Assembly: GCA_003141275.1 (NCBI GenBank)
Contig: PLLM01000061.1
Location: forward strand, 7,131-71,130
Direction: 5' to 3'
From: Phycisphaerales bacterium
GTDB lineage: Bacteria; Planctomycetota; Phycisphaerae; Sedimentisphaerales; Anaerobacaceae
DNA length: 64,000 nt
Shown here: positions 9,469 through 17,322 of the stretch, piece by piece
Layout: each line of letters opens with the position of its first letter
Numbering within the stretch: the stretch's first letter is position 1
The notes under the pieces: generated by a model
Told to the model about the DNA's origin: nothing
The model's input: the letters and a program-made list of their open reading frames with translations, nothing else
The model's database searches: none
Position numbers and translations under genes: made by a program

Positions 9469-10050
9469 TCATGCAAGGTTCAATCTCGCGAACTCGCCGT
9501 GGTATTTAATAGCGGCCCGGTCATGTGCCTTCGCGGCGTCGATTTCGTTATCAAATTGTCCTAACCATATTCTTTTACCCTGGAACCTGAGATAGGCAGT
9601 CCACTTGCCGGTTTTCTTGCTGAAACATACGCCGATAAATCGCGAAGAGGTTTTCGTCCGCGTCTTTTTTTTGTTGTAGGCGTTCTGAGCGTATGTCGCC
9701 AGGCGGAGGTTGTCCCTGCGATTATCGAGGGCATCTCCATTTTTATGGTCAACTAACAGGCCCGCAGGGGGGGTCATAATTTCCCTGTGCAAATATATGA
9801 TTTTCGAGCCACTCCAGTAATTACCCATAAACCGGATGGCCGTAAAAGATTTGCCGTTCGGTTTTGCGATCCAATAAAAATTATTCAGCCGATAGTAATC
9901 CGCCTCGTCAACAAGCGTGTATTTCCCTTCCGTCAGCACTATCCTGCGATACGTGTACCCGTATTTCCATTTCCGGTACATCACCGCTGGCCACGCGAAA
10001 ACCCTGTCCATCCATTCCGGTATCCCAATTGTTAAATTAACCCTCATCAT
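9469..10050 (-). CDS. HNH endonuclease with C-terminal AP2 DNA-binding domain (homing-endonuclease-like)
   Basis: HNH_3-type motif 'LVDHKNGDALDNRRDNLRLATYAQNAYN' is followed by the AP2/ERF-type 'FIGVCFSKKTGKWTAYLRFQGKRIWLGQFDNEIDAAKAHDRAAIKYHGEFARLN'. Confidence 0.85.
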   Translation of the reverse strand: MMRVNLTIGIPEWMDRVFAWPAVMYRKWKYGYTYRRIVLTEGKYTLVDEADYYRLNNFYWIAKPNGKSFTAIRFMGNYWSGSKIIYLHREIMTPPAGLLVDHKNGDALDNRRDNLRLATYAQNAYNKKKTRTKTSSRFIGVCFSKKTGKWTAYLRFQGKRIWLGQFDNEIDAAKAHDRAAIKYHGEFARLNLA

Positions 10051-10123
10051 TTATCCTTCTTGTCCTCGGGATTAGCTCCTTTGGTCTTCTGCCGGGGATC
10101 CACAAAACGAAATACGATATACG

Positions 10124-10156
10124 ACACGGAGCGAAGCGACGGGCCCGCTTCGGAAA
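10124..10156. repeat. 33-nt hairpin repeat, copy 1 (second copy at 18276..18308)
   Basis: 'acacggagcgaagcgacgggcccgcttcggaaa' is identical at both sites. It contains the stem cgaagcg/cgcttcg with a 7-nt loop. Confidence 0.85.
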
Positions 10157-10820
10157 GACTATCAACTACAGAGGAAAACGCTTCCTCTATAATTGGCGCA
10201 AACCGACGCCTTGCGTCGTCCTGAGCAAGGCCGATGTCGTTTCGGCCGCGTCGAAGGATCTGGCCATCGACTACCTTTCCCGTCCGCCGGAGAGATTACA
10301 CGTCTCTCTATAATTGGCGCAAATATGCGCGCTTTTGACGAAAATTCCGATTTTGGGGGTGCCTCGAAATGCACTTAAGTTGTTATGGTATAAGGAGTAG
10401 AAAATTTTTTCAGAATTTCGGATTTGGCCAAAAAACACCTGCGCGAAATCGGCGAACAAATGTATCATACAACTGTTTTATACAAGTGTTTTATGCGACT
10501 TTTTTAGTCCTGTTTTAAGTCCCTATTTCACAAGCAGTTACATCAAGAGGTCTGCGTGAAAAACGAGCAAAAAACAGGCCCAAAAATGACCCAAAAAAGG
10601 GGCTTAGCCACAGATTTCACAGATGAACACTGATCTATAACCGCTTAATAATAATGAAGTTGCGTCGTTTTTTTAATGTACCCATCCCGCCTGTTTTTTC
10701 ATGCAAAAATTCGCGCCGCAGTGAACCCGCCTTTGGCAGATTTACGCTAAAAAATGGGGGCGGGAAAAAATGGTTGCTGTCCACATTATTACTGCATTCC
10801 AGTTTTCTGTCTATTTACGT

Positions 10821-11447
10821 CTATTTTCCAGGGATGGGCCATTCGAACACAGGATTGTCAATATCAAATTTCATTTTACCTCTATCCCATACCATTTCAT
10901 ATATCCGCACTGAAACCTTTTGCGTGCCTTCTTCTTCTTTTTCTTCTGTTTTGAAAGCTTTCGGTATTACCCCGCCTACAGCGCTTACAAGCCCCGCCGT
11001 AGCTGTAATGGTTTCCGGGACCTTAGTATCCGTAGTTGCAGCAAGAGAGGTAAGCTGCCAGCCGTTAGCAAGCGTAATCTTCGTGTCGGATGTGCCGTTT
11101 CCCGGCTTAATTGTAATGCCATATTTTGTCCGCAGATCCGGCAGATAGATAATCTTTACCGAGTAACCATCTTTGTTAGTATTGGCTGTAATTGGGACTT
11201 GCTGTGTGACTTTTTCATTAATTTTAGTGCCATCCGGTTTTTCCGTTTTGGTTTCTGTGACCTTATCTTGATATTCCGTTGTCGAAATCCCACTGGTGAT
11301 AAGAAGATATGGCCTCGGCAGGTAATAAGGAATACCCGTATTCTTATCACCTAATTTTTTTACTTCGACAGATGAACCGCAGCTTGTAAGAAAAAGGGCC
11401 GGCATAACATATAACACGAGCAGGAACTTTGTAATTTTACTACACAT
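10821..11447 (-). CDS. Putative lipoprotein
   Basis: An internal ATG at 11447 gives 'MCSKITKFLLVLYVMPALFLTSCGSS', a signal peptide with lipobox L-T-S-C. The remainder is Thr/Lys-rich and beta-strand-like. The longer ORF-track start (11525) lacks a signal peptide. Confidence 0.65.
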   Translation of the reverse strand: MCSKITKFLLVLYVMPALFLTSCGSSVEVKKLGDKNTGIPYYLPRPYLLITSGISTTEYQDKVTETKTEKPDGTKINEKVTQQVPITANTNKDGYSVKIIYLPDLRTKYGITIKPGNGTSDTKITLANGWQLTSLAATTDTKVPETITATAGLVSAVGGVIPKAFKTEEKEEEGTQKVSVRIYEMVWDRGKMKFDIDNPVFEWPIPGK

Positions 11448-11618
11448 AGAACACTTCCTTTCACAAGCGGCACCTGACAACGAGTCCAGGGCAGCCCAAC
11501 ACAATTTATATTTCGACTTAGACACTTATATATAGGCGTAGAAGGGGGATTAAATGTTGATTGAAAAACCTGACAAAAAAGGGTAAAAAAGGGTCTTAAC
11601 CACGGATTAACACGGCTG

Positions 11619-11641
11619 GGAATGTCATAGCTAACGGTAGA
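11619..11641 (+). repeat. Left terminal inverted repeat of the IS
   Basis: 'ggaatgtcatagctaacggtaga'. The exact reverse complement is present at 14581-14603. Confidence 0.9.
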
Positions 11642-11697
11642 AGGAAATAAGGCCTACACTTAATATATTATGGCGTAGTATTTTACAAAGATTTAAC

Positions 11698-11724
11698 TTG
11701 CTTCCAGCCGAAATGGTGTATAAT
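11698..11724 (+). promoter_or_regulatory. Candidate sigma70-type promoter for the Panacea operon
   Basis: TTGCTT (11698-11703), a 15-nt spacer, then a consensus TATAAT (11719-11724) preceded by tg. It lies about 30 nt upstream of ATG 11752, which has a GGAAGGAAAAA leader. Confidence 0.4.
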
Positions 11725-11751
11725 GACCCAAAAGAGAGTTGGAAGGAAAAA

Positions 11752-12189
11752 ATGGCAAAACTAACTGCACAAGATGTAGCTAATTATTTCCTATCTCTTG
11801 TGGAGGAGGATTGCGGAGACGGCATATCTAATCTTAAATTACAAAAGCTCCTGTATTATGCGCAGGGTTTTAATTTGGCGATTACGGGGAAACCTCTTTT
11901 TGATGAACCTATTTTGGCTTGGCAACACGGCCCTGTTGTCCGTATTGTATGGAGACATTATAGTCTCCACGGAGCAAACCCTCTGCCAAGACCAAAAAAA
12001 TTTGACTTGAGCAAGTTTGACGCTCCAACAAAAGAATTACTCGGTGATATTTGGGAAATTTATGGGCAATTTTCTGCTTGGAAACTTAGGAGTTTAACCC
12101 ACGGTGAAAAACCGTGGATTGAAACAGAAAAAAAACAAGCAATTTCGCCTAAGTTAATGACGGCTTACTTCAAAACGCTTTTGAGCTAA
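11752..12189 (+). CDS. Panacea/DUF4065 domain protein (SocA/GepA-like antitoxin type)
   Basis: 'MAKLTAQDVANYFLSL..ISNLKLQKLLYYAQGFNLAITGKPLFDEPILAWQHGPVV..VW' is the characteristic DUF4065/Panacea N-terminal pattern. ATG at 11752 within the longer ORF-track frame. Confidence 0.8.
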   Translation: MAKLTAQDVANYFLSLVEEDCGDGISNLKLQKLLYYAQGFNLAITGKPLFDEPILAWQHGPVVRIVWRHYSLHGANPLPRPKKFDLSKFDAPTKELLGDIWEIYGQFSAWKLRSLTHGEKPWIETEKKQAISPKLMTAYFKTLLS

Positions 12190-12193
12190 TGCT

Positions 12194-12610
12194 ATGGGCG
12201 AAAAGTTTCGAAACAGGGAAACACAACAAAGCAAAAATATTACATATCAAACACACGGCGAATCAACTAATAAACTGCACCCCGCCTTTTGTCTAAGATA
12301 TTTAGAAAACTCAAAATATGGTTTCCCTAAAGGCAACAAAGATAGACAGGTTATTATTATGGGGGACATATATCAAATGTGTCAAAAACCGTGGCAAGAA
12401 ATAGTTATGACGCCAAGAAATAAAGGGGGGAAAGAACTTATAGCCCAAAACGCCATTTTAAGAACACCCCGTATGAGTATTTCTCCTGATGAACGCTATT
12501 TATCTTTTTATATTGGCGGAGACAAAGGAAGAATGGTTGGATGTCGCCGCGACAAAGTGTTTTATGTCTTTTGGTTCGACTTCGATTTTGACCTTTACGA
12601 CCACGGATGA
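12194..12610 (+). CDS. Hypothetical 138-aa protein, candidate toxin partner of the Panacea protein
   Basis: Starts 4 nt after the Panacea stop on the same strand. No family recognised by eye. C-terminal 'GRMVGCRRDKVFYVFWFDFDFDLYDHG'. Confidence 0.5.
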   Translation: MGEKFRNRETQQSKNITYQTHGESTNKLHPAFCLRYLENSKYGFPKGNKDRQVIIMGDIYQMCQKPWQEIVMTPRNKGGKELIAQNAILRTPRMSISPDERYLSFYIGGDKGRMVGCRRDKVFYVFWFDFDFDLYDHG

Positions 12611-12613
12611 CAA

Positions 12614-13609
12614 TTAAACGTTAATATCATCGGGGCTTGCCGGTGGCAATTGCTTTTGTTCCTCTTGTGGCTCTTTCCCTTTTGATTGTTTTTCCTGAGC
12701 TAATTTTTCGCTATATTCGATTAACGGCAAATCTTTCCACGGCGGAAGTGCCCTTTGTATCATTCGCTTAAAATCAGCCCAAGTCGATGCTGCTTTCATT
12801 AAAGCTGTAACGGCAAATATATGCTCTCTAAGTTTAGGATTACCAATATCATCGGTTAACCATTGGAAAAATTTACTTTTTCTTCTTCCTTTTACGTCTT
12901 TGGGGTTTTTCTTTTTTAGCTCGTCAAGGACCCCCGGTGCAAGACGTTCATATACTATATCATTTGTTAATTTGCCGACAAGAATTGGCCGTTTTACGGA
13001 AATAGGATGATACCTCCAGCCCCTCAAACGAAACAAATTTGCGTAAAAATCGTCAGGGAAAGTTTTGGCCCATTTTAGTTTTTCATCCGAAATAAACATC
13101 TCCAGTATTTCTGCAAGGGCTTGCCGAGTGCGGATATATTGATAACCAGTAGCCTCATCAACTAATGCAATAATCCCAACTTTAGCAAAAGACCTTACAA
13201 GAATTTCACATTGAGCTGCAATATGTTTTTGTTGACTGTTCAGAGTGCCTTCTTTTCTTGCTTCTAATACAACTTCGCAAATATCAGCAAGTATTGTTGC
13301 TTCAAAACCAGCCGCTTCGCCCCCAGAAGGTATTTTGAATTTAATGGGATTTGTGGTCCTGTTGTATAAGTCCTTGCTAACATAGGATTTAAGCGCATTT
13401 GTTCCCAAAAATTTAGTAAGTCGGTCCTCCCCCTTTGTGGTAGTTGTTTTGCCAGACCCACCACTACTCATATTTAGCGCAGAATACAGACCGCTTTTGA
13501 CTAATACCCTTTTCCCGTCCTCAAGAACATAGCAAGGAATTTCTACGTTGCCTATTCTTAATGGGCTATCAGGTGAACCATAAACCGCTTTTACTATTTC
13601 ATTTGCCAT
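12614..13609 (-). CDS. P63C domain-containing protein
   Basis: N-terminus 'VYGSPDSPLRIGNVEIPCYVLEDGKRVLVKSGLYSALN' matches my memory of the P63C domain family. Its start codon lies 1 nt after the transposase stop, so the two are translationally coupled. Confidence 0.7.
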   Translation of the reverse strand: MANEIVKAVYGSPDSPLRIGNVEIPCYVLEDGKRVLVKSGLYSALNMSSGGSGKTTTTKGEDRLTKFLGTNALKSYVSKDLYNRTTNPIKFKIPSGGEAAGFEATILADICEVVLEARKEGTLNSQQKHIAAQCEILVRSFAKVGIIALVDEATGYQYIRTRQALAEILEMFISDEKLKWAKTFPDDFYANLFRLRGWRYHPISVKRPILVGKLTNDIVYERLAPGVLDELKKKNPKDVKGRRKSKFFQWLTDDIGNPKLREHIFAVTALMKAASTWADFKRMIQRALPPWKDLPLIEYSEKLAQEKQSKGKEPQEEQKQLPPASPDDINV

Positions 13610-13610
13610 T

Positions 13611-14498
13611 TTATGCCGCTCCTAAACTCCTTTGAATTGTTAAACTGAACACATCCTCTTGTTCTCTGTGGTTATAACGATAACAAAATTCATCTACGTA
13701 TTTAGGCAAGTGTCTCAAGCTGACTTTGTGATACTGCCCTACAATACCTCGTTTAAGCAAAGCCCAAAACGATTCTATTGTGTTGGTATGAATATCGCCC
13801 CGGACATACCATATAGAATGGTCGATTGATTTGTGTGGTAAAATTCTGGACATACCGAGATAACTCCGATATTGGTCTGTCATCAAAATAGTGTTTTGAA
13901 TATCAACCTTTTCCCGGACAAGAGCCGAAAACTTTTTTAAGGTAAGGCGAGATTTTCCAAACACCTTTGCATAAACCTGCCCTTTTCTTTCGACCATACC
14001 GACGACTGGTATTTTGCTTGTTCCCCTGCCACATTTATGTTTTATATGCACATCTTTACCGCTACCCCGTCTGGGCTTGCCCCCGACATACGTTTCATCC
14101 ATTTCAACGATACCGCAAAGCAGATTACGATGCTCTGGCTGATACATAGCATCTCTTACCTGCATACCTATACGCCAAGCGGTGTTCCGATTGACTTTTA
14201 AGTGTCTTGCTAACTGTCGGGCCGAAATACCTTTTTTGGCGTTTAAAATTAAGGACACAGCAAGCAACCATTTTTGAAGGGGTAAACGCGTTCTATGAAA
14301 TATGGTTTTGACGGTAACGCCATAGCTGGTGTTGCAACTGTTGCAATGATAACGATGCTCTTTGGGCAGGGGTGTTTGCTTGCTCGATTTGCAGTAAGGG
14401 CAACGCGGCGTTCCTTGCCACCTGACTTTTTCTAAGTAAGCAATGCAATCGTCCTGTTTCGGAAACCTTGCGAACACTTCAAAAATATCCATTGTCAT
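13611..14498 (-). CDS. IS1595-family (ISXO2-like) DDE transposase
   Basis: N-terminal zinc-ribbon 'CPYCKS..YHCNSCNTSY', an HTH-like 'GISARQLARHLKVNRNTAWR', then the ISXO2-like core 'VEMDETYVGGK..MTDQYRSY..H..GDIHTNTIESFWALLKRGI.GQYHKVS..HLPKYVDEF.YRYN'. Confidence 0.9.
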   Translation of the reverse strand: MTMDIFEVFARFPKQDDCIAYLEKVRWQGTPRCPYCKSSKQTPLPKEHRYHCNSCNTSYGVTVKTIFHRTRLPLQKWLLAVSLILNAKKGISARQLARHLKVNRNTAWRIGMQVRDAMYQPEHRNLLCGIVEMDETYVGGKPRRGSGKDVHIKHKCGRGTSKIPVVGMVERKGQVYAKVFGKSRLTLKKFSALVREKVDIQNTILMTDQYRSYLGMSRILPHKSIDHSIWYVRGDIHTNTIESFWALLKRGIVGQYHKVSLRHLPKYVDEFCYRYNHREQEDVFSLTIQRSLGAA

Positions 14499-14580
14499 AG
14501 CCCTTAAATTCTATCTACCAGTATCTATGTAGAATTATAACCTGTGTTCGGCCAAAGTCAACAAAAATCTAAAATATTTT

Positions 14581-14603
14581 TCTACCGTTAGCTATGACAT
14601 TCC
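14581..14603 (-). repeat. Right terminal inverted repeat of the IS
   Basis: 'tctaccgttagctatgacattcc' is the reverse complement of 11619-11641. Confidence 0.9.
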
Positions 14604-14854
14604 GACACGGCTTTATAACTGCTTGTATATAAAGCACTTATATTGTTTTTTTTAACACGAAGAACACAGAGAAACACGAAGAAAAAAAATACATAAAACC
14701 TTTATCCGGCGTAGGCGGAAAATGGCCGGAGTTAAATTTATCGCGAAGCGCAGGGCAGGAATTCAAATCAAAAAGCAAATGGCAAAAGGCAAAAATGTGG
14801 TATCCCGGAGGGATGATTTTTACCGCGGCGGGAAAAAAACGGTAGCTGTTCCCA

Positions 14855-15820
14855 TTATTCCCCAATTCCAACAATATTTAAATTGCCTGCCGAGATAGTT
14901 ACAACCCTTTCCTTTGTTTTTAATAAAAAGTGGGCGTAATGTATTATGGCTTGTATATGTAAGTTATAAATTTCTAACTCGGTTTCTTTTTCTTTAATCT
15001 TTCCTATTTTTTGTACATCAACAGATTTAATGCCCTCTTTATTAGCAAGGGTATTATTGGGAGGGATCAAAGCGTTATTTGCCTCTGTAATTTTAGCAGG
15101 ATTATATCCTGAAAATTCGTTGAAGTCCTTGATATCGTTTATTCCGAGAGACATCAAATTTTCTATTCCCTCCATTCTGGATAAATACCAATCATGTGTA
15201 TTTTTGTCGATTAGTAATCTATTGAGTTTGTCTTTACTCAAGATTCTTGCATTATTTATAATCGCTGCGCCGTAAAAGTTATCTCCATATTTGTATACAC
15301 CATCTAATGTGATAGCATATCTCAATTCAATATTTCCTATTTTTGCGTGTAATCTTCTCATAAATGAATCGGAGTTATAAAACCGAACTATAGTAGCAAA
15401 TGTAAGAACAAACAAAACAGCGTGAATAGGCGTTTCCAGTATTTGAAAACCTCCGTCACCTGTGCTAATAAAATGATTATTTCGATCGATACGGTTGGCG
15501 TTATCTATATCCCCAAATTTGCGATAATGCTGAAATATATAAGAGTAATTTTCCGTTATTAACTCCCAAGTATGATTGTATATTAACGCAAATAAAGGGG
15601 GAATGAATATTTGCTTGTCTGCTGGAAATAAGCTATATTGATATATATCAATACCAACTACGGTATGTTTTTGACTTGTTAGTTTCAGTATTTCGGCCTT
15701 TTCCTCTTCTGTATATTCTTTGGGGTACTCTTCTTGTTTTTTGAATCGTACTCTCGGGAGAACGTTAAATTCAAACATTTTATTTAAAAGCTCTTTTTTT
15801 AATTCAGCGATATTTATCAT
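14855..15820 (-). CDS. Class III nucleotidyl cyclase-like (adenylate/guanylate/pyrimidine cyclase fold) protein with an unknown C-terminal domain of about 120 aa
   Basis: The palm-domain motifs occur in the right order. 'HTVVGIDIYQYS' is the metal-Asp strand (compare F.DI.GFT). 'FISTGDGGFQILE' holds the second metal Asp (compare K.IGDa). 'LRYAITLDGVYKYGDNFYGAAIINNARILS' compares with hG.v..G....d.wG..VN.AaRl. The gene is conspicuously AT-rich relative to its neighbours. Confidence 0.6.
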   Translation of the reverse strand: MINIAELKKELLNKMFEFNVLPRVRFKKQEEYPKEYTEEEKAEILKLTSQKHTVVGIDIYQYSLFPADKQIFIPPLFALIYNHTWELITENYSYIFQHYRKFGDIDNANRIDRNNHFISTGDGGFQILETPIHAVLFVLTFATIVRFYNSDSFMRRLHAKIGNIELRYAITLDGVYKYGDNFYGAAIINNARILSKDKLNRLLIDKNTHDWYLSRMEGIENLMSLGINDIKDFNEFSGYNPAKITEANNALIPPNNTLANKEGIKSVDVQKIGKIKEKETELEIYNLHIQAIIHYAHFLLKTKERVVTISAGNLNIVGIGE

Positions 15821-16137
15821 CTCTCAACCCTTGGCTAAGCAAAGCTTACTATCTTTTCTTTACCCCTGGAATAACCGGGGACACCATACTTATTTCCTTA
15901 TTATTTATAAAGCATTTACCGGACGGCAAAGTTGGTAGGCAAAGGTGCGTTTCTCTTTTTGCAGTATATTGTTAAACTGGAAAGAAAACAAGCATTTTTG
16001 TTCGCCACCAAGGCACTAAGGCACTAAGTTTTTCGACTTAAGTAAAAGACAGGACAGTGTTAATCTGTGAAATCTGTGGCTTGATTAAATCGTCAATCGA
16101 CATTCGGCAATCGGCAATTGCTTAATCCGCCTTGCCT

Positions 16138-16196
16138 GCCCCCGCGTCTCGTTTTGCGAAGCCCCGCCTTGCGGGAAGAATCAAAACGGCGGGGGG
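16138..16196. repeat. GC-rich palindromic element, copy A
   Basis: Starts with 'gcccccgcgtctcgttttg' and ends with 'aaaacggcggggg', which can pair. It encloses the small hairpin ccgc-ctt-gcgg. The same ends are found at 17099..17183. Confidence 0.6.
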
Positions 16197-16293
16197 TTGC
16201 AATTATCTTAATGGCAGGATAAAATCATTGGAAACCTGCGCCGTAAGCAGGGTATATGTGGAACAAACGCAGGATTATTCAGGAAGCGGGAAA

Positions 16294-16686
16294 ATGCGGG
16301 TAAACTATAAGATAATTCAAGCCAAAGATTTCATAAAGGCCAAACCCACCGGCCAGATAGACCTTGATGAGAGCAAAAAAATGCTCAGTCAACTTGCGCA
16401 GATGGAGGAATTAATCGGAGATCATGAGCTGCTGTTAGATTTGCGGGAAGTCCACAGCAACATGGATCATGCCGACCTGTTTGAGCTGATTCTTGAACTT
16501 GGGCGGCACAAGGAGGCATTCCGAAGTAAGATCGCCGTCATTGCAAGAGATGATGAGCAATTCAACAAAGCTGTTTTTCTGGAGATGTGCGCGAATATCG
16601 ACAAATTTACCGTTATGGCGTTCACCGATTTTGAAAAGGCAGCAAACTGGCTCCAGTCCGATGAGGGTCTGGAAGACCTGTTATAG
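16294..16686 (+). CDS. Hypothetical 130-aa protein (possibly STAS/SpoIIAA-like fold)
   Basis: ATG at 16294 after GGAAG. The upstream part of the ORF-track frame (16132-16293) runs through the GC-rich repeat and is not credible coding sequence. The fold guess rests only on the alternating beta/alpha pattern 'IDLDESKKMLSQLAQ..ELLLDLREV..ADLFELILEL..KIAVIARDDEQFN..FTDFEKAANWL'. Confidence 0.45.
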   Translation: MRVNYKIIQAKDFIKAKPTGQIDLDESKKMLSQLAQMEELIGDHELLLDLREVHSNMDHADLFELILELGRHKEAFRSKIAVIARDDEQFNKAVFLEMCANIDKFTVMAFTDFEKAANWLQSDEGLEDLL

Positions 16687-17183: not shown

Positions 17184-17322
17184 CGCAATCAGCGTCTAAA
17201 ATAAATCAGTGCAATCCGTGTAATCTGTGGCTAATAAAAAAACAGCGTATAGCGGACAGAAAAGACACAAGACAGCGGGCAGCGTACGAAGAAAAAATTT
17301 ATTTATTTTGCCCGGATTTTGT

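Follow-up and report, generated by a model that had tools for sequence, protein, structure and literature searches.

Does the solitary AT-rich gene that lies beside an insertion sequence (IS) in this planctomycete contig encode the signal generator of a Pycsar-like anti-phage system, as the original prediction proposed, or an enzyme that works alone? The window, by which we mean the whole stretch of DNA that was analysed, spans 64,000 nucleotides. The gene had been placed at 14638–15820; a 321-aa ORF with an ATG start is present at the upper end of this interval, but a boundary at 14638 also takes in a separate, TTG-initiated ORF, and the feature was redrawn as follows:

14855..15820, minus strand: gene for a 321-aa divergent class III cyclase-homology-domain (CHD) protein, supported by the ORF, its homologues, an AF2 model, and Foldseek.
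14638..14874, minus strand: 78-aa TTG-initiated ORF that runs into the gene at its 3' end; considered spurious and left outside the feature.

The AT-richness ascribed to the gene holds, with a GC content of 0.323 vs. 0.459 in the window and 0.405 in the island (9469–16000) that contains it. Gene GC lies 0.13–0.23 below that of the flanks in the window and in three related loci (L002, L084, and L086), which argues for horizontal origin; family genes in Bacteroidota have the GC of their flanks. We propose that the planctomycete genome gained this single AT-rich gene, now part of a small island, by horizontal transfer. When the gene flanks were scanned with Rfam, nothing credible appeared. The 321-aa protein was described as having no sensor, membrane, or receiver domain, in keeping with Pfam and NCBIfam scans that found no transmembrane (TM), signal, or sensor domains; it thereby differs from class III cyclases such as Ma1120, Rv1900c, CyaB, Cya2, CyaC, and RhoGC in having no regulatory domain. 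On balance, we regard the gene as likely to encode a single-domain cytosolic enzyme that has the fold of class III nucleotidyl cyclases, belongs to a sequence-isolated family, and works alone.

The fold is the principal evidence for this reading. The AF2 model of the protein (pLDDT 89.1, pTM 0.89) has 105 Foldseek matches in the PDB at E <= 0.001, and the best 50 of these 105 are all class III adenylyl or guanylyl cyclase domains (best E 6e-7; target TM 0.53–0.73 among the matches listed), at approximately 10% identity in the structural alignments; the best matches in a viral library are cyclase-domain proteins too. The model follows the CHD order beta1-alpha1-beta2-beta3-alpha2-beta4-beta5-alpha4-beta6-alpha5-beta7-beta8, with the conserved residues at the expected elements, so that the family shares with class III cyclases both the fold and the order of secondary-structure elements, although it is out of reach of any sequence profile tried. 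The C-terminal region of about 120 residues, previously taken for an unknown domain, for the most part completes the cyclase domain, and the whole protein is modelled as one compact unit. In the model, these residues form beta6, a helical insert (206–262), a long hairpin (263–296) that occupies the place of the canonical beta7–beta8 hairpin, and an extra strand (304–311); pLDDT drops to 53–78 at residues 297–321. The helical insert, the long hairpin, the extra C-terminal strand, and a GNLN..G tail are additions relative to class III cyclases. In some PycC enzymes, too, C-terminal beta structures that are specific to a clade lie near the active site (PMC11224242). The elements of the domain that bear conserved residues are:

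15632..15664, minus strand: residues 53–63, VVGIDIYQYSL, the end of beta1 with D58 and the D-I-x-x-[Y/F]-[S/T] phosphate loop (DSSP strand 51–59).
15437..15472, minus strand: residues 117–128, FISTGDGGFQIL, the beta2–beta3 hairpin with D122 (strands 117–119 and 123–128).
15206..15325, minus strand: residues 166–205, beta4 with R167, the beta4–beta5 arm, helix alpha4 (G184-x-x-I-I-N-N-A-R192), and D197-x-L-N-R201 leading into beta6.
14933..15034, minus strand: residues 263–296, the long beta-hairpin, whose turn bears invariant K278 (strands 263–277 and 280–296).
14858..14932, minus strand: residues 297–321, the family-specific extra strand (304–311) and the C-terminal motif G312-N313-L-N315-x-x-G318.

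Conservation was computed on 236 full-length family members with 26–70% identity to the query. The three motif blocks on which the cyclase call was originally based all exist (VVGIDIYQYS at 53–62; ISTGDGGFQILE at 117–128; and LRYAITLDG...AAIINNARILS...LNRLLID at 166–205), and because they coincide with invariant columns of the family alignment they are not chance resemblances. Five residues are 100% conserved (D58, G121, D122, G123, and G184) and six are 99% conserved (R167, R192, K278, D197, R201, and Y62); lower values are found for I118 (92% Ile), S63 (89%), N190 (86%), N181 (83%), and N189 (70%), and the C-terminal motif is again nearly constant (G312 98%, N313 97%, N315 97%, G318 95%). 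As far as residue conservation can indicate, this near-invariant catalytic set points to selection on catalysis. The model, the Foldseek matches, and the invariance of the catalytic residues together uphold the class III call, including both of the proposed metal-binding Asp residues.

D58 and D122 are the proposed first and second metal-binding Asp, respectively. Judging by their position in the fold, residues 53–63 would correspond to the canonical F-x-D-I-x-G-F-T motif, and K278 may be the counterpart of the canonical triphosphate-binding Lys in the 'KGK' hairpin. The family and class III cyclases have in common an Asp at the end of beta1, an Asp in the beta2–beta3 turn, an Arg at the start of beta4, an alpha4 Arg eight residues after a Gly, and a Lys in the C-terminal hairpin. 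R192 is eight residues past G184, as in canonical enzymes, and a local hhalign alignment of the family with three real cyclase domains, which were pulled from the PDB with a consensus as bait, sets G184..R192 on the canonical G-x-x-V-N-x-x-x-R helix, albeit at an E of 0.61 that is not significant; global mode gave a nonsense alignment. The canonical Asn of N-x-x-x-R aligns with I188, and the N189/N190 of the family represent a shift of one or two residues.

Under the cyclase reading, two copies of the protein would pair head to tail, as other class III cyclases do. Two divalent metal ions would be coordinated by D58, which ends beta1, and D122, which lies in the beta2–beta3 turn; R167, R192, and K278 would hold the triphosphate, and an NTP would be converted to a 3',5'-cyclic NMP with release of pyrophosphate. 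The protein is probably an active, divergent, stand-alone nucleotidyl cyclase.

Several features depart from the class III pattern, and speak in themselves against a cyclase: the shifted Asn, a D58–D122 distance of 64 residues vs. the usual 44, and the absence from the family of the base-specifying Lys/Asp (ATP) or Glu/Cys-type (GTP) pair. Four residues ahead of D122, where canonical enzymes have the specificity Lys/Glu, the family has I118, and 11 residues ahead of R192 it has N181. The residues at the base-specifying positions (G56, I118, T120, and N181) fit no adenine, guanine, uracil, or cytosine code. Additionally, D197, R201, W211, E220, G312, and N313 are invariant residues with no canonical counterpart.

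These departures would also suit a palm-domain enzyme that catalyses something else, for instance the synthesis of dinucleotides or oligonucleotides by which GGDEF or Cas10/mCpol proteins are known, or other nucleotidyl transfer; the helical insert and extra strand could likewise belong to such an enzyme. GGDEF and Cas10/mCpol proteins have palm-type folds related to that of the query and likewise carry a metal-binding acidic residue on a beta-hairpin, and the TGDGGF hairpin is superficially like GGDEF. Nevertheless, we consider such a reaction unlikely: no GGDEF or Cas10 protein is among the best 50 of the 105 structural matches, Pfam gave no GGDEF match for the query or for 37 members, and the alpha4 G-x-x-x-x-x-x-x-R, the beta4 Arg, and the hairpin Lys make up the class III triphosphate-binding set, of which the alpha4 G...R helix and the hairpin Lys set the query apart from GGDEF and Cas10/mCpol. 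A catalytically inactive pseudo-cyclase with a nucleotide-binding or scaffolding role appears highly improbable. The failure of sequence profiles and the non-canonical Asn and specificity residues could mean that cyclase chemistry was lost, but two Asp and three basic residues are essentially invariant in the 236 members, down to 26% identity, which is the opposite of what degenerate cyclase domains display.

Approximately 974 homologues of the 321-aa protein were found, none of which carries a Pfam domain. Their distribution across phyla is patchy. No sequence profile supports a relationship to canonical cyclases. Pfam Guanylate_cyc (PF00211) matched neither the query at E <= 1 nor any of the 37 members at E <= 10, and NCBIfam and PADLOC scans of the query gave no matches, PycC models included; cyclase, GGDEF, and PycC profiles thus gave the query no significant match, which is one of two outcomes seen here that the original prediction had itself named as refuting it, the other being homologues that lack partner genes. 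When the 37 members were scanned one by one with Pfam and PADLOC, no recurring family appeared, and a single member touched the PADLOC PycC model (E 0.002). The PHROGs scan of the query returned phrog_23933 alone (E 0.0011), a family of unknown function, and phmmer and profile hmmsearch of PDB sequences yielded nothing relevant to the query. A family profile search of 1.84 billion representatives found only 313 proteins, so it stops short of canonical cyclases; none of these enzymes were found among the DNA sequences searched. Judged by these searches, the approximately 1,000 proteins constitute a sequence-isolated family that was not annotated before.

There is precedent for such a family in DUF2652, which comprises cyclase-like proteins of Actinobacteria, Bacteroidetes, and Proteobacteria (Ramakrishnan et al., 2016; PMC4886424). 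Its members, likewise cytosolic, single-domain, and class III cyclase-like, stayed cryptic to all but remote-homology methods and keep the metal-binding Asp residues. DUF2652 proteins have Glu-Lys/Arg at the specificity positions vs. Ile/Asn in the query family. DUF2652 was rejected as the identity of the family, given that its Pfam model failed to match the query and all of the 37 members.

The genomic setting of the gene in the window was described correctly. The stand-alone AT-rich gene does lie in an island (9469–16000) next to a real IS, delimited by inverted repeats and a target-site duplication, and with the IS removed the next gene on the same strand is the lipoprotein gene (10821..11447/11525). 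The elements concerned are:

11618..14604, minus strand: IS1595-family element of 2,987 bp, 242 bp downstream of the gene, recognised by inverted repeats, target-site duplication, and transposase.
13611..14498, 12614..13609, and 11698..12610: IS cargo, namely the transposase, a P63C gene, and a SocA/Panacea pair, respectively (P63C, SocA_Panacea, and phrog_8366 matches).
10821..11447, minus strand: lipoprotein gene with the lipobox FLTSC; an ORF that is not a conserved partner.

The IS has 25-nt terminal inverted repeats and a perfect 8-bp target-site duplication (ACACGGCT) at 11610–11617 and 14605–14612. Its transposase matches DDE_Tnp_IS1595 (PF12762, 8e-33), a zinc ribbon (PF12760, 9e-10), and NF033547 (191 bits vs. 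a cut-off of 75). The neighbours of the gene in the window are the IS1595 transposase, P63C, SocA/Panacea, the lipoprotein, and a SpoIIAA-like protein. The IS1595 element is context and not a functional partner of the cyclase gene, and would have inserted downstream after that gene was acquired. A 27-nt inverted repeat at 10606/16055 was entertained as the ends of a cassette holding the cyclase and lipoprotein genes, and was dismissed as a dispersed repeat with four copies.

A Pycsar-like system, in which a cyclic nucleotide made upon infection activates an effector (novel, lost, or separated by the IS), would fit this setting of an AT-rich gene whose island also holds an IS and a toxin–antitoxin pair, as well as the class III fold with its intact metal-binding aspartates. 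The query family shares with PycC, the pyrimidine cyclases (clades A–F) that are paired with PycTM/PycTIR receptors (Tal et al., 2021; PMC11224242; PMC13069673), the character of a small stand-alone class III-type cyclase with no sensor domain, and with Pycsar an accessory-region location in the window and in related non-Bacteroidota genomes. The contact of one of the 37 members with the PycC model adds to the likeness. At the specificity positions, however, the query has G56/I118/T120 where EaPycC has F100/R142/Q144, and the query itself matches no PADLOC model.

Partner genes across the homologues are decisive. In Pycsar, a receptor/effector gene adjoins the cyclase gene and encodes a cyclic-nucleotide-binding domain (CNBD) fused to TM or TIR (PMC11224242). 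The query family, in contrast, has no CNBD-TM or CNBD-TIR receptor gene alongside in the loci examined: a CRP-seeded jackhmmer search found no CNBD-like ORF in the window or in 89 loci, the annotated contexts of family members contain no TIR or cNMP_binding, and no conserved TM effector adjoins the family gene in the window or in other loci. Inspection of the genes downstream of homologues thus gave no TIR, TM, or cNMP-binding effector. No neighbour of the family gene is conserved in 80 genome loci, and in 14 non-Bacteroidota loci the only protein in common is the family gene product itself. The effector candidates put forward for the window fare no better. Among 86 other family loci, none holds a homologue of the lipoprotein or of the 78-aa ORF; the ORF has no family match, and its homologues are identical copies of the same contig only. 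The C-terminal part of the protein belongs to the cyclase domain in the AF2 model. Loss of an effector need not be invoked, since in the loci examined the family never has one. The nearest approach to a partner is a small two-TM protein (c4) directly upstream in 28 of the 80 loci, all in one Bacteroidota clade, and an order of TM gene then cyclase gene is known in Pycsar (PMC13069673). It was rejected as a PycTM-like effector because it is clade-restricted, has no CNBD, and is dispensable, being missing from sister loci with the same synteny (L015, L027, L029, L036, L044, L059, and L060). A 319-aa gene downstream in locus L090 was likewise discarded as a tandem paralogue, as it has no family similarity and a weak AbiU2-HEPN match. 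Furthermore, many members are found in housekeeping contexts, unlike Pycsar, with the Bacteroidota members set stably among housekeeping genes in clade-wide synteny. The Pycsar reading is already largely refuted by gene context, and we regard it as very unlikely.

Because no receptor or effector is encoded alongside in the genomes examined, either the favoured stand-alone cyclase makes a product that is sensed in trans or it acts on its own. The latter could take the form of a one-gene defence or addiction module, in which the solitary cyclase is the effector and, when triggered, might drain an NTP pool or produce a non-canonical cyclic nucleotide that is toxic, and which spreads via toxin–antitoxin (TA) or defence islands. 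TA, defence-like, or mobile genes lie within approximately three genes of the family gene in nine of 10 sampled non-Bacteroidota contexts: SocA/Panacea with an IS; Pol-beta/HEPN; CopG-like; YopA/HSDR_N; AbiU2-like HEPN with HNH; integrase/excisionase; RES/PDDEXK; PIN/Fic/Y1 with IS transposases; and XRE/HigB. In the tenth (L086), housekeeping genes predominate, and a restriction-enzyme gene is found about 6 kb off. Any enrichment of such neighbours is anecdotal. A gene that is AT-rich relative to its hosts, patchy across phyla, and devoid of a sensor domain would suit such a module, whereas the stable housekeeping synteny of the Bacteroidota members would not. Family relatives are absent from phage genomes, plasmids, and 2.9 million viral contigs (the last by a pattern-seeded search), and defence models match neither the query (PADLOC) nor the 37 members, bar the one PycC contact. 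We consider a one-gene module unlikely. Equally doubtful is the more specific proposal that a self-sufficient receptor-less cyclase protects against phage or stabilises islands, having moved repeatedly from low-GC Bacteroidota-like donors to TA/defence islands of Planctomycetota, Spirochaetota, and Desulfobacterota.

To find a stand-alone cyclase beside an IS, within an AT-rich island, is insufficient for a Pycsar call; the partner test across homologues decides, and here it fails. The class III cyclase superfamily gains a well-defined family of approximately 1,000 divergent stand-alone members that are invisible to Pfam, NCBIfam, and PADLOC, and a profile model of the family would improve annotation. 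With a complete predicted catalytic set and a non-canonical base code, its enzymes are candidates for making an unrecognised or unassigned cyclic nucleotide, both in Bacteroidota and in several phyla that have been little studied.

The gene under study is a genuine open reading frame (ORF), as claimed in the original prediction, although the lower coordinate assigned to it there (14638) is the end of a separate, overlapping ORF:

14855..15820, minus strand: cyclase-fold gene, ATG start, 321 aa
Lower coordinate 14638: 78-aa ORF, TTG start, overlapping the 3′ end of the cyclase-fold gene

The gene is AT-rich, as had been noted (its GC of 0.323 is below both the window-wide 0.459 and the 0.405 of the low-GC stretch 9469-16000), and neither a known RNA family nor a convincing terminator was found in its flanks. 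Searches of the 321-aa query against Pfam, NCBIfam, and PADLOC gave no matches, and PHROGs gave a single marginal match, to a family of unknown function. No relevant chain was found among PDB sequences, either by phmmer or by a family-built profile; 37 members scanned singly against Pfam (E ≤ 10) yielded no recurrent family, and a PADLOC model for PycC, the Pycsar cyclase, was touched by one of the 37 (E 0.002). The family profile recovered only 313 matches (E ≤ 0.001) from 1.84 billion representative proteins and did not reach canonical cyclases. Profile–profile comparison with real cyclase domains (Cya2, CyaB, and CyaC, fetched by baiting the PDB) was not significant (E 0.61), its sole local alignment placing G184…R192 on the canonical G-x-x-V-N-x-x-x-R helix. 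The cyclase or palm-domain match sought for the original prediction is therefore absent at the sequence-profile level (Pfam, NCBIfam, PADLOC, PDB). The three cyclase-like sequence blocks were all found, and the same columns are invariant in the 37-sequence family alignment (G56/D58, G121-D122-G123, and R167…G184…N190/R192…D197/R201); they are therefore conserved features, which excludes chance resemblance.

Structure prediction bore out the cyclase-fold assignment. In an AlphaFold2 model generated from the family alignment (mean pLDDT 89.1, pTM 0.89, no segments below 50), the order of secondary-structure elements is that of the class III cyclase homology domain, with each conserved residue at the expected element:

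D58: end of β1, strand 51-59
D122: turn between strands 117-119 and 123-128
R167: start of β4
R192: on helix 185-196
K278: turn of hairpin 263-277/280-296

We take D58 and D122 to be the class III metal-binding aspartate positions, and R167, R192, and K278 to be the basic trio holding the triphosphate. Past D58, the loop D-I-Y-x-Y-S resembles the canonical D-I-x-G-F-T loop of class III cyclases in keeping its aromatic and hydroxyl residues. Foldseek returned 105 matches in the PDB (E ≤ 0.001; best E 6e-7), of which the top 50 listed are all (50/50) class III adenylyl or guanylyl cyclase catalytic domains (Ma1120, Rv1900c, Rv1625c, CyaB, Cya2, CyaC, RhoGC, soluble guanylate cyclase, and Rv1264), with target-normalised TM-scores of 0.53–0.73 and ~10% identity; among predicted viral structures, too, cyclase-domain proteins matched best. 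The ~120 C-terminal residues, previously regarded as an unknown domain, are not separate: by both model and conservation they form one compact unit with the cyclase fold, comprising β6, a family-specific helical insert (206-262; conserved W211, F212, and E220), the long hairpin bearing K278, and one extra strand (304-311) that, with a conserved GNLN..G tail, closes the protein.

Across 236 full-length members (26–70% identity to the query), D58, G121, D122, G123, and G184 are 100% conserved, and R167, R192, D197, R201, and K278 are 99% conserved. Conservation of this kind is typical of an active enzyme and not of a decayed pseudo-cyclase. A pseudo-enzyme, or a palm domain with a different chemistry, is less likely because the top 50 structural matches listed are to class III domains only and the catalytic set is invariant. 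The best-supported reading is a solitary, cytosolic, catalytically competent class III cyclase-fold enzyme, for which class III chemistry is reasonably probable. Such an enzyme would probably work as a homodimer and would make a cyclic NMP from an NTP via two-metal catalysis, releasing pyrophosphate.

The family departs from characterized cyclases at several positions. A variable loop (92-116) runs between D58 and D122, which are spaced by 64 residues; in the PycC enzymes EaPycC and AnPycC the corresponding distance is 44 (PMC11224242). The canonical Asn column falls on I188 in the query, the family carrying N189/N190 instead; where canonical cyclases have the base-specifying pair Lys/Asp or Glu/Cys, the query has I118 and N181, and the CTP-specifying residues F100/R142/Q144 of EaPycC (PMC11224242) are equivalent to G56/I118/T120. 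The substrate cannot be predicted from these base-specifying positions.

There are 974 homologues (E ≤ 0.001), nearly all of 300–325 aa; they are devoid of Pfam domains, and every named one is called “hypothetical.” A one-genome-per-species scan gave 248 relatives, and the ORFs of the best 80 loci (mostly Bacteroidales and Lentimicrobium) were clustered, with recurrent neighbors confirmed using Pfam. Synteny around the family gene in these 80 loci is constant inside clades and different from clade to clade:

Lentimicrobium-type genomes: between shikimate dehydrogenase and NAD(P)H-hydrate repair enzyme
Another clade: flanked by DnaG primase on one side and by an aminotransferase, then inorganic pyrophosphatase, on the other
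Other clades: beside ZnuA and an ABC ATPase, or beside further unrelated genes

At Bacteroidota-type loci the GC of the family gene equals that of its flanks, which, together with the within-clade synteny, is consistent with a gene that has long been inherited vertically in a housekeeping setting. In Draconibacterium-type loci (L039, L042, L043, L065, L069, and L070, L-numbers denoting loci around members elsewhere), the pyrophosphatase lies two genes downstream on the same strand, past the aminotransferase; this proximity, confined to one clade, may be more than coincidence, since pyrophosphate is a by-product of cyclases. Directly upstream of the family gene in 28 of the 80 loci (Lentimicrobium clade, within L003-L073) is c4, a small protein (~180 aa) with two transmembrane helices and a β-rich C-terminal tail, encoded by a same-strand gene of ~540 bp at a distance of 4–20 bp (e.g., L030:7381-7923). 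Sister loci of identical synteny lack c4, which has no cyclic-nucleotide-binding domain, no defense-model match, and no Pfam/PADLOC identity save a sub-threshold DUF2244 match. Two loci, L018 (labelled Omnitrophica WOR_2; neighbors of the family gene ordered exactly as in Lentimicrobium, 0.34 GC) and L045 (labelled Hyphomicrobiales; 0.33 GC), have the appearance of Bacteroidota contigs wrongly binned into MAGs of other taxa; the true taxonomic spread is therefore probably narrower than record titles imply.

The window protein belongs to a different branch (50–71% identity among closest relatives), which occurs in Spirochaetia, Phycisphaerae/Planctomycetota, Desulfobaccales, Wallbacteria, and unbinned metagenome contigs. 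Across ten contexts of this branch the neighbors are never alike, and are often toxin–antitoxin, defense-like, or mobile genes:

Window: IS1595 with SocA/Panacea and P63C
L084: Pol-beta/HEPN fusion
L086: chiefly housekeeping genes
L087: CopG-like pair
L088: YopA and HSDR_N
L090: weak AbiU2-type HEPN and HNH
L091: integrase, excisionase, DUF5906
L092: RES and PDDEXK_3
L093: PIN and Fic, plus Y1, IS110, and IS21 genes
L094: XRE and HigB

All-against-all comparison of 14 such loci found nothing in common except the family gene, the GC of which is 0.13–0.23 below that of its flanks in the window, L002, L084, and L086. No member turned up among 2.9 million viral contigs, 50,697 phage genomes, or 72,556 plasmids. 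Downstream of a 66%-identical relative (L090:7027-8567), two same-strand genes encode proteins with weak matches, one of 319 aa to an AbiU2-type HEPN domain and one of 187 aa to HNH/PtuB-like nucleases, a possible defense pair unlike the neighbors at every other locus.

Within the window, the neighborhood has been reshaped by an insertion sequence:

11618-14604: IS1595-family element, 2,987 bp, with 25-nt terminal inverted repeats
11610-11617 and 14605-14612: perfect 8-bp target-site duplication, ACACGGCT

Besides its transposase it carries three passengers: P63C (phrog_2384), a SocA/Panacea-domain protein, and the 138-aa partner of the latter (phrog_8366). Given this cargo, the 3-kb element would thus be an IS mobilising a putative toxin–antitoxin pair. 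Its insertion point, 242 bp downstream from the end of the cyclase-fold gene, lies between that gene and the lipoprotein gene (10821..11447, minus strand); the pre-insertion order originally proposed, with the lipoprotein gene next after the cyclase-fold gene, is therefore right. A 27-nt inverted repeat (96% complementary; 10606-10632 and 16055-16081) was considered as the ends of a cassette around these two genes and rejected, as it belongs to a short intergenic repeat, AGCCACAGATTTCACAGAT(G/T)AACACTG, which consists of three CACAGAT-like heptads and is present in four copies:

10606-10632, plus strand
11598-11617, plus strand, degenerate; the IS1595 target
16055-16081, minus strand
~17210-17232, minus strand

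The copies lie within 7 kb in both orientations, with two exact 17-mers vs. 0.1 expected, and may serve to bind a protein or represent a REP-like element. At the opposite edge of the low-GC island is an HNH endonuclease–AP2 DNA-binding fusion of the homing-endonuclease type (9469-10050, minus strand), and a divergently transcribed 184-aa ORF (16132-16686, plus strand) matches SpoIIAA-like/STAS below threshold (E 5e-4, 21 bits vs. a cut-off of 25); this ORF was not seen next to family members elsewhere, and homologues of the SpoIIAA-like, HNH–AP2, and P63C genes and of the SocA pair are absent near other members.

Pycsar systems pair a PycC cyclase with a receptor that joins a cyclic-nucleotide-binding domain to a membrane or TIR module (PMC11224242; PMC13069673). 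The PycC profile, receptor, and operon features of the Pycsar-like system first envisaged were all examined and none was found, and the gene should therefore not be filed as Pycsar. Neither candidate effector, the lipoprotein or the 78-aa ORF, has a homologue near any other family member, and no CRP-like cyclic-nucleotide-binding ORF was detected in the window or in 89 loci (jackhmmer seeded with a CRP bait, three iterations); no receptor is encoded in cis. Low GC and contexts resembling islands hint at a possible one-gene role in defense or addiction for the non-Bacteroidota branch, whereas the Bacteroidota branch points to a housekeeping signaling role; a self-sufficient one-gene cyclase conflict module is, in our estimation, improbable.

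There are precedents for cryptic cyclase-like families, such as DUF2652 (PMC4886424), which is separate from the present family. The solitary cyclase-fold enzyme described here does not represent a novel type of system. Its family is a variant form of a known kind of enzyme, unannotated and isolated in sequence, with its own insertions and non-canonical specificity positions, and merits its own family model.
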